Assembly (NCBI RefSeq): GCF_024502345.1 | Contig: NZ_JALDNN010000001.1 | Source: Escherichia coli | Lineage (GTDB): Bacteria > Pseudomonadota > Gammaproteobacteria > Enterobacterales > Enterobacteriaceae | DNA: 64,000 bases | Direction: 5' to 3' (one strand) | Shown here: positions 51,029 through 54,038 of the stretch, piece by piece | Numbering within the stretch: position 1 is the stretch's first letter | Layout: each line of letters opens with the position of its first letter | Notes under the pieces: model-generated | What the model was told of the DNA's origin: nothing | The model's database searches: none | The model's input: the letters and a program-made list of their open reading frames with translations, nothing else | Made by a program: the position numbers and the translations under genes

Positions 51029-52637
51029 TCAGTTATCACGACGCACCGCCATCGAAACCGTAAAAATGCCCCACTCATCAATCCGTTGAGTGCATTTATC
51101 AAATCCGGCATTACGCACGAGCGAATCCATCTCCCCTTGCGAACGCACGCGCATTACCCACGGTTTACCATCTTTATGACTGGTTAACACCCCGGCAATC
51201 AGCTCCAGTTGTGGGTGCCACGGCTGCCCGGTGTAGAGGAGAATGCCGCCCGGTTCGATGGCATTGGCAAGACCTGCGAGTGAGTTTTTTACCTGCTCAT
51301 TTTCGGGAAAAAGCTCATACAGTCCAGAGACAATTGCCAGCGTAGGCCGCGGAGTTAACGCGCTGAGTTCCTCCGGGTTAAACGCATCGCCCTGTTCAAA
51401 ACGCACCCGCCCAGACATTCCCCGTTGGGCAATCATCTCTTGCCCCTGTGCAACATTTAACTCGCTGTAATCACGTAACAAAATATCGCTTACGGCAGGC
51501 TCGTTTGCCAGCGCATCCAGTACATAGCGCCCATGCCCTGCGGCAATGTCAACCACGCGGACGGCTAAACCTTTGGCGTGGAGATCGGCAACGGCTTGTT
51601 TAATCTGTATTTGTAAATGGGTTTTGCGCTGGCGAATACCGCGCCAGCCAACACTGTTCAGGTAGATTTTGTCGATTAAGCGCCCGAATGCGTTACTACC
51701 TTGCGGTTGATTTTGATAGACATAATCCAGCGAACTGCCTGAATCAAAGCCGGTGCTCATTCCGAGATGCAGGCCCGCAGAGTGCGTCCCGAACAATTTC
51801 ATCGCCTTTCGCATAAAGCGATACGCTAAATCAACCGGCGATAATGGCACGGGTCCACCAGAAAGTAGCCGCCATCGATCCGCTGATGGTCCTGTGCAGT
51901 CTTCATGCTGATAGTCAAATTTTTGCGATTTGTTAGCATATAAACGACTAATAAAGCTTTGCATTTTTTCAAATGCCAGCGCCCTGTTCTCTTCACCCAA
52001 CGTGTCGTGATAAAAGCCTGGCAGCAGATGCAGCTCTTTCAGAGGGCTACGTAATCTCTGATAAAAATCAATCTGCGGTTGGCGATGCACCACATAGTCA
52101 TCGCCTGATATCAGAAGTTGCGTGGGGAGCGTAATCGCCGCCGCATCTCTAATAATACGTTCAGACGTTTTGTAGAGATCGAACAAGATATTAACGGCAA
52201 TCGCCCGTGTGATCAGCGGATCATTATTGAAACTCGCCACCCGTTGCCGATCGTGGGTCAAATAGCGTCCTTTCACATAGGAATTAATAAAAAACAGACC
52301 ACGCAGACGATGCCATAACGTCAGCGCAGGACGTGCCAGCGGCACATACAATTTAACCTTAAAGGCCGGAGAAGCCAGCACCAGCCCGCGAATTGCAGGT
52401 GCATAATCATGAATCCATGTGGCAACCAGCACTGCGCCGACGCTTTGCGCGATCACTACCACCTCTTCCAGTCCAACCTGGCTGTCGCTGGCAGCAAAAC
52501 GGACAAATTCATCGACATCCCGCACTGAACGCGCAAGAGATGGGCTATAACCACGCGGCCCCGAACTTTTTCCATGCCCTCGGGCATCCCAGGCATAAAA
52601 AGCAGTATCTGGCATCGCCAGTTCATCAACGAGATGT
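51029..52637 (-). pseudogene. ynbC: YnbC (alpha/beta hydrolase plus methyltransferase) lacking about 50 N-terminal codons, abutting the IS903-family element
   Basis: ORF 51029..52726 runs uninterrupted into the IS left end; its first 29 codons derive from IS sequence. Confidence 0.7.
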
Positions 52638-53694
52638 GGCTTTGTTGAATAAATCGAACTTTTGCTGAGTTGAAGGATCAGATCACGTATCTTCCCGACA
52701 ACGCAGACCGTTCCGTGGCAAAGCAAAAGTTCAAAATCACCAACTGGCCCACCTACAATAAAGCCCTCATCAACCGTGGCTCCATAACTTTCTGGCTGGA
52801 TGATGAAGCTATTCAGGCCTGGTATGAGTCAGCAACACCTTCTTCACGAGGCAGACCTCAGCGCTATTCTGACCTTGCCATCACGACTGTGCTGGTCATT
52901 AAACGCGTATTCAGGCTGACCCTGCGCGCTGCGCAGGGCTTTATTGATTCCATTTTTTCTCTGATGAACGTTCCGCTACGCTGCCCGGATTACAGCTGTG
53001 TCAGCAGGCGGGCAAAGTCGGTTAATGTCAGTTTCAAAACGCCCACCCGGGGTGAAATCGCACACCTGGTAATTGATTCCACCGGGCTGAAGGTCTTCGG
53101 TGAAGGCGAGTGGAAAGTCAAAAAGCATGGCCAGGAACGCCGCCGTATCTGGCGTAAGCTGCATCTCGCCGTTGACAGTAAAACACATGAAATCATCTGC
53201 GCTGACCTGTCGCTGAACAACGTTACGGACTCAGAGGCCTTCCCCGGGTTAATCCGGCAAACCCACCGGAAAATCAGGTCAGCCGCCGCCGATGGCGCTT
53301 ACGATACCCGGCTATGTCACGATGAACTGCGGCGTAAGAAAATCAGCGCGCTTATCCCTCCCCGAAAAGGTGCGGGTTACTGGCCCGGTGAATATGCAGA
53401 CCGTAACCGTGCAGTGGCTAATCAGCGAATGACCGGGAGTAATGCGCGGTGGAAATGGACAACAGATTACAACCGTCGCTCGATAGCGGAAACGGCGATG
53501 TACCGGGTAAAACAGCTGTTCGGGGGTTCACTGACACTGCGTGACTACGATGGTCAGGTTGCAGAGGCTATGGCCCTGGTACGAGCGCTGAACAAAATGA
53601 CGAAAGCAGGTATGCCTGAAAGCGTGCGTATTGCCTGAAAACACAACCCGCTACGGGGGAGACTTACCCGAAATCTGATTTATTCAACAAAGCC
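52638..53694 (+). mobile_element. IS903-family insertion sequence, 1057 bp, copy 2 (identical to copy 1, same orientation)
   Basis: Same 18-bp terminal inverted repeats; the encoded ORFs are identical to copy 1; no target-site duplication. Confidence 0.85.
52715..53638 (+). CDS. IS903-family DDE transposase
   Basis: Identical to the transposase ORF at 4131..5054. Confidence 0.8.
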   Translation: MAKQKFKITNWPTYNKALINRGSITFWLDDEAIQAWYESATPSSRGRPQRYSDLAITTVLVIKRVFRLTLRAAQGFIDSIFSLMNVPLRCPDYSCVSRRAKSVNVSFKTPTRGEIAHLVIDSTGLKVFGEGEWKVKKHGQERRRIWRKLHLAVDSKTHEIICADLSLNNVTDSEAFPGLIRQTHRKIRSAAADGAYDTRLCHDELRRKKISALIPPRKGAGYWPGEYADRNRAVANQRMTGSNARWKWTTDYNRRSIAETAMYRVKQLFGGSLTLRDYDGQVAEAMALVRALNKMTKAGMPESVRIA

Positions 53695-54038
53695 GAGTGA
53701 TGCGTTACTTTCCGGTAAAAATAAAAAGGTAAATAGAGCGCAATATCGGAAATAACATCGCCAGTTTCATTCAAAATCGCCCCCAGACGTGTTTGCTGAT
53801 TGCACTCACGCGCCAACATGCCATCCAGCGCATTGAGCGCCATACGGATAAAAAGCACGATGGGCAATAGCAAAAAGAGGATGGGTTGTGCCACCAACAC
53901 CAACAGCAATCCGGTAAAAAGAGAAAGCGCCAGTGCCGTAAGAGTGATGTGATTCGCTGTAACGTGGTGCTTATAAAGCCAAAACATCGTCGGCCTTAAC
54001 AGCGACTGAAAGAGCGGTTTTATCTGGTAGAGCGTCAT
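53695..54038 (-). pseudogene. ynbA: CDP-alcohol phosphatidyltransferase-family protein YnbA, 3'-truncated by the IS element (about 114 codons retained)
   Basis: ORF begins MTLYQIKPLFQSLL… and continues into the IS right end. Confidence 0.65.

Follow-up and report, generated by a model that had tools for sequence, protein, structure and literature searches.

In the 64,000-nucleotide stretch of an Escherichia coli genome analyzed here (contig NZ_JALDNN010000001.1 of assembly GCF_024502345.1; hereafter the window), a complete copy of the insertion sequence (IS) IS903B stands at a deletion junction within the ynbABCD operon, in place of the 3' end of ynbA, the whole of ynbB and the 5' end of ynbC. 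This element, referred to as copy 2, has a twin, copy 1, elsewhere in the window. Damage affects each of the four operon genes: ynbA is frameshifted and truncated, ynbB is gone, ynbC lacks its 5' end and ynbD is interrupted by a stop codon. The observation is real but ordinary, a deletion scar left by IS903B through a known mechanism in a dispensable and repeatedly decaying operon. An initial annotation of this region had already described the replacement, and comparison with the operon of K-12 and with the intact operons of relatives confirmed it. It had further proposed that an ATG inside the element opens a 565-residue frame continuing into ynbC and that this chimera might be expressed from IS-internal signals, a proposal that fared less well, as described below.

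The extent of the loss was established by aligning the minus strand of the window to ynbABCD of K-12 (L003). The ynbA gene is kept up to K-12 nucleotide 345 (codon 115), and ynbC resumes at nucleotide 150, the third base of codon 50, in agreement with the position of about codon 50 given initially. Between these points 1320-1321 bp are missing, which takes away codons 116-201 of ynbA, the entire ynbB gene and the first 50 codons of ynbC; the 1-bp uncertainty exists because the terminal base of the IS happens to match ynbA. Identical boundaries were obtained against L007, which like the window is without ydbD and which encodes intact YnbA (201 residues), YnbB (298) and YnbC (585). Searches with blastn and tblastn did not find the deleted DNA elsewhere in the 64 kb, nor a coding sequence resembling YnbB, and relocation of ynbB within the window was therefore rejected.

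On the left of the element, the ynbC remnant (51029-52637, minus strand) runs from the third base of codon 50 to the stop codon. Its 1609 nucleotides are colinear with K-12 ynbC nucleotides 150-1758, with 18 mismatches and no indels, and the frame is otherwise open. On the right, the ynbA remnant (53695-54038, minus strand) corresponds to reference nucleotides 1-345 with a 1-bp deletion inside. This deletion falls between 53728 and 53727, at codon 104 and 33 nucleotides before the IS junction, and puts ynbA out of frame from there; it was scored against K-12, 2013C-3264, strain A30 and the otherwise identical L011 allele (no mismatches, one gap). The ynbA frame had initially been said to run into the right end of the IS; it does reach the element, but it has already been shifted when it gets there. 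The resulting open reading frame (ORF), ynbA' (53664-54038, minus strand; 124 codons), consists of 104 YnbA residues, 11 frameshifted residues, the last completed by the terminal base of the IS, and nine IS-encoded residues, and ends at a TAA (53664-53666) 31 nucleotides inside the right end of the element.

Copy 2 (52638-53694, plus strand) is 1057 bp long and is bounded by perfect 18-bp terminal inverted repeats (52638-52655 and 53677-53694), its first 18 nucleotides, GGCTTTGTTGAATAAATC, being the reverse complement of the last 18. It contains a single long ORF, which encodes a 307-residue DDE transposase (52715-53638, plus strand; GTG start at 52715, whereas the program-made ORF starts at the TTG at 52670) assigned to the IS5 family by NCBIfam model NF033579 (357.6 bits, cutoff 140). 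As initially stated, it is identical to copy 1 (4054-5110, also on the plus strand), without a mismatch over 1057 bp, and the identity ends exactly at both IS termini. It also matches many plasmid copies from E. coli, Salmonella and Citrobacter at 100% identity over its full 1057 bp, and these are annotated as 'IS5-like element IS903B family transposase'. By length, inverted repeats, ORF and near-identity, copy 2 belongs to the IS903 group of the IS5 family. The element itself shows no difference from known IS903 and IS903B in size, 18-bp repeats or 307-residue DDE transposase; the only novelty is its site, as the ynbA/ynbC junction was absent from the collections searched. Being complete and identical to copy 1 and to the plasmid copies, copy 2 is presumably active.

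The nine nucleotides flanking copy 2 are ACGAGATGT on the left and GAGTGATGC on the right, which form no direct repeat, so that the 9-bp duplication of a simple IS903 insertion is missing, as the initial annotation had noted. The two 9-mers agree at five of nine positions, for which the chance expectation is about 5%. By comparison with K-12 and other strains, the left flank is unaltered native ynbC and the right flank unaltered native ynbA; a duplication that has since decayed is ruled out on this ground, and since each flank is unaltered, the target-site duplication can be regarded as truly absent. Its absence is what is expected at a deletion junction and is no argument against the IS903 identity of the element.

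An insertion in another strain illustrates how a simple event in ynbC looks. E. coli A30, isolated from a horse (NZ_CP092500.1, L002), carries in ynbC an IS903-group element of 1057 bp, 93.5% identical to copy 2, with a clean 9-bp duplication, TAATCTCTG, and with ynbA and ynbB intact beside it. Gene, orientation relative to ynbC, length and IS group are shared with copy 2. Unlike copy 2, the A30 element lies between the hydrolase and methyltransferase domains of the gene and has its duplication without any deletion. Because A30 carries the expected duplication, simple insertion in ynbC is distinguishable from what is seen at copy 2.

Copy 1, in direct orientation relative to copy 2, bears a similar signature. 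It truncates yddE at a second deletion junction, the yddE ORF (3525-4064) running into the element, and its flanks (...CACTCAAAAG and TATGCAAGG...) again show no duplication. Relative to K-12 about 8.5 kb is missing here, and relative to strain 2013C-3264 about 10.4 kb. In other E. coli strains, the first 375 bp to the right of copy 1 (5111-5485) separate yncG from a type VI secretion island encoding PAAR, VgrG and effector proteins. Judged from a strain carrying this 375-bp flank, the loss at copy 1 appears to amount to about 12 kb, including the type VI secretion island, pptA, yddH, nhoA and the 3' end of yddE. Both IS903B copies in the window thus sit at deletion junctions. Colinearity with K-12 extends from narZ to the paa genes and holds to either side of each IS, without inversion.

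The best explanation for copy 2, and in our judgment a probable one, is insertion and then an adjacent deletion carried out by the transposase. IS903B would first have inserted in the region from ynbA to ynbC, on a K-12-like chromosome with the same gene order. One end of the element would then have attacked a nearby target on the same molecule by replicative intramolecular transposition mediated by the transposase, and the DNA between the IS and this target would have been lost, the 'adjacent deletion' that is classic for IS903. The outcome would be a single IS joined to two non-contiguous native sequences, hence without a 9-bp duplication. The order of these events and their dependence on transposase are what we infer; the end product is what is observed. 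The IS is retained, its flanks are native sequences, separated by 1320-1321 bp in K-12 and in those relatives whose ynbABC is intact, the intervening DNA is missing and both sides are colinear. Copy 1, with no duplication, a truncated yddE and a kilobase-scale loss, points the same way. Adjacent deletions by IS903 are common and require replicative transposition through a cointegrate, and they are, together with recombination between IS copies, the usual cause of missing duplications (PMC11708052). A parallel is provided by the insertions of IS150 followed by adjacent deletion in the E. coli long-term evolution experiment, in which the IS is likewise central in the deletion, the duplication is missing and the locus lost is a dispensable one (PMC11708052). 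IS150 differs in belonging to the IS3 family, and its intermediate insertions were seen at earlier time points, whereas none are available here.

Three considerations weigh against this explanation. The collections searched contained no intermediate, the sequence fits an original insertion on either side, and recombination of two neighboring IS copies, or a one-step insertion without a duplication, would account for the final sequence equally well.

The first of these alternatives supposes that IS903B inserted in direct orientation in both ynbA and ynbC and that a RecA-dependent exchange then removed 1.3 kb together with one IS. It would yield exactly the observed end product, a hybrid copy with unmatched flanks, and it is a common attribution for missing duplications (PMC11708052). 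The ynb operon of other strains has in addition been hit repeatedly, by IS903-like and IS1A elements in ynbC and by ISVsa5 in ynbB. On the other hand, it calls for three events rather than two, with two same-orientation insertions within 1.3 kb in addition to the recombination; neither single insertion was found in any genome searched, and an equally improbable series would be needed again for copy 1. We therefore regard it as possible but unlikely. A second alternative is a one-step event, in which the IS entered a double-strand break or deletion intermediate, or its ends integrated in a non-concerted manner, so that no duplication was ever made. The movement of an IS5-family element of the IS903 sub-group in E. 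coli C, with a large deletion and no duplication, has been interpreted in this way, and the structure at copy 2 is formally identical to that case; the mechanism is a proposal, whose authors grant that their own deletion case could also be due to adjacent deletion (PMC11708052). Nothing in the copy 2 sequence separates a one-step event from the two-step routes; we consider it improbable. Exchange of flanks between copies 1 and 2 is ruled out, since the flanks do not match and synteny is colinear.

The 565-codon ORF reading from the IS in frame into ynbC exists as initially described (51029-52726, minus strand) and comprises 29 IS-encoded codons, one junction codon and YnbC residues 51-585. The codon at its start (52724-52726, minus strand), which had been read as ATG, is TTG (CAA on the plus strand). 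It lies antisense to transposase codons 4-5 and is preceded at nine nucleotides by GGTGAT, a Shine-Dalgarno-like element with a predicted anti-Shine-Dalgarno duplex of -9.8 kcal/mol. From the upstream stop (52829-52831) well into ynbC there is just one other in-frame start, and this sole in-frame ATG is the native Met58 of ynbC (52613-52615, minus strand), which has no Shine-Dalgarno match (duplex -2.4 kcal/mol). Among the three frames leading out of the left end of the IS, a single one holds any start codon, and hitting that frame is a one-in-three chance; the chimeric ORF is best seen as an accident of the frame at the junction.

The possibility that this ORF is transcribed, by IS-internal or read-through transcription, and translated from the IS start into a functional, N-terminally altered YnbC was nevertheless weighed. 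To its credit, the frame continues unbroken through the junction, neither stop nor indel occurs in the 535 ynbC codons that remain, and the TTG has the Shine-Dalgarno-like element just described, so that translation from it would be conceivable if an mRNA existed. The source of such an mRNA is the difficulty. Consensus scans of the minus strand from 52638 to about 53390, of which the outward-promoter test consisted, found no sigma-70-like promoter near the left end of the IS, either at the threshold of the tool or with matching relaxed to 8/12; the nearest weak promoter-like match, itself 8/12, lies at 53420-53391, about 670 nucleotides upstream. IS-borne outward or hybrid promoters that activate neighboring genes are known from IS10 (pOUT), IS1, IS2, IS26 and ISEcp1, and the concept invoked initially, transcription leaving an IS end into a neighbor, is the same. 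In contrast to those promoter-bearing ends, the left end of IS903B has no -35/-10-like element on the outward strand, and a full-text literature search, judged by title and abstract, pointed to no outward IS903 promoter.

The other possible source is read-through transcription starting at the ynbA promoter, a target of activation by BglJ-RcsB in K-12 (PMC3950696). The terminator-like hairpins between that promoter and the TTG are all weak, which favors such read-through, but the transcript would cross about 940 nucleotides of untranslated antisense IS RNA from the ynbA' stop to the TTG. Rho-dependent polarity should lower downstream expression on transcripts of this kind. An Rfam scan found no structured RNA at the ynb/IS locus, its only hits, sok and RydC, lying elsewhere in the window.

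The protein itself would also be impaired. By Pfam, YnbC consists of a Hydrolase_4 domain (residues 32-266) and a Methyltransf_20 domain (275-582). Its N-terminal domain can be aligned with structurally characterized monoglyceride lipases such as 6EIC and 3HJU, residues 36-50 (VLFHRGHEHSGRLQH) aligning with their HGxGEH segment. We take the matching segment of YnbC (HxGxEHS, reading HRGHEHS in YnbC) to be the oxyanion hole of the family. Loss of residues 1-50 is thus predicted to remove the first strands of the alpha/beta-hydrolase domain and the oxyanion motif while leaving the methyltransferase domain intact, a point in favor of a working product; the partners encoded by ynbA, ynbB and ynbD are all inactive. 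Expression of the chimera has no support in the sequence and several points against it, and a functional product is extremely unlikely. Hardly more credit is due to a broader proposition, that the IS-ynbC ORF, started at the TTG or internally, would give a stable stand-alone methyltransferase or that both junctions in the window would be one-step insertions at breaks. Were the former true, a bifunctional enzyme would have been reduced by the IS scar to one in which only the Methyltransf_20 domain works.

The junction allele was not encountered outside this strain. Queries of 120 bp for each junction against 5,426 complete E. coli genomes returned IS-only or flank-only matches, and the exact left-junction 32-mer had no match in the species-representative genomes of GTDB or in JGI metagenome contigs. 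Exact look-ups of the 124-residue YnbA' and of the 528-residue product starting at Met58 found no record, nor did that of the 565-residue chimera, an imperfect query having L rather than M at the TTG. From these searches, the ynbA/ynbC junction looks private to the strain.

Damage to the operon extends beyond the IS. The ynbD pseudogene (49723-51015, minus strand) carries W52*, a TGG to TAG change at 50860-50862, a lesion that, like the ynbA frameshift, was absent from the initial annotation. The same lesion occurs in L010, whose ynbD differs from that of the window at two of 1293 nucleotides and whose ynbABC genes are intact; W52* as a result of the IS event is thereby ruled out, and it can be considered independent of that event and probably older. 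With all four genes damaged, the operon is predicted to be non-functional in this strain and its loss to be tolerated. The ynbC remnant (51029-52637) differs from L010 at about 40 positions in 1.6 kb, against the near-identical ynbD, which suggests a mosaic locus with a recombination breakpoint near the ynbC/ynbD boundary.

Inactivation of ynbD has occurred independently in many lineages, by differing lesions: Q39* in L007 and L013, W52* in the window and L010, W58* in L009, W286* in 2013C-3264, and frameshifts in L008, L011 and L012. This sample was found by way of the 341-residue downstream ynbD product and is biased towards N-terminal lesions; the identical 341-residue product occurs in 115 blocks of the contig collection. 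Other genes of the operon are affected as well in several complete genomes, with internal stops in ynbC (Q392*) as well as ynbD in strain 2013C-3264, IS1A in ynbC of OkiPb01714 and OkiPb01696, and ISVsa5 in ynbB of strain 1919D62. The ynb operon appears to have been lost repeatedly and independently across E. coli. Repeated loss fits the auxiliary role reported for YnbB, whose knockout grows like its parent and has an MPIase level that is not significantly changed (PMC6362211).

Several other differences from K-12 were noted in the window. Beside patD, a 1313-bp insert (15356-16668) that is not an IS appears to replace yncL and encodes a 269-residue hexapeptide-repeat acetyltransferase-like ORF (15651-16460, minus strand). 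The K-12 element IS609 (insQ) is precisely absent at 28763/28764. The ydbD gene, located between pdxI and ynbA in K-12, is also absent, with about 106 bp in its place (54138-54243), as in L001 (NZ_CP027544.1) and L007.

As direct repeats of 1057 bp that are identical and 48.5 kb apart, copies 1 and 2 form a substrate for homologous recombination. Exchange between them could delete a further 48.5 kb, from yncG to ynbC and including hrpA, aldA, trg, opgD and tehAB.

The significance of copy 2 is small beyond correct annotation. A fitting description of the locus is an IS903B with a pseudogene fragment on each side, one of ynbA and one of ynbC, and with ynbD also a pseudogene, rather than a 565-residue fusion protein. 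As both copies in the window stand at deletion junctions, IS903B appears to be removing dispensable DNA in this strain.

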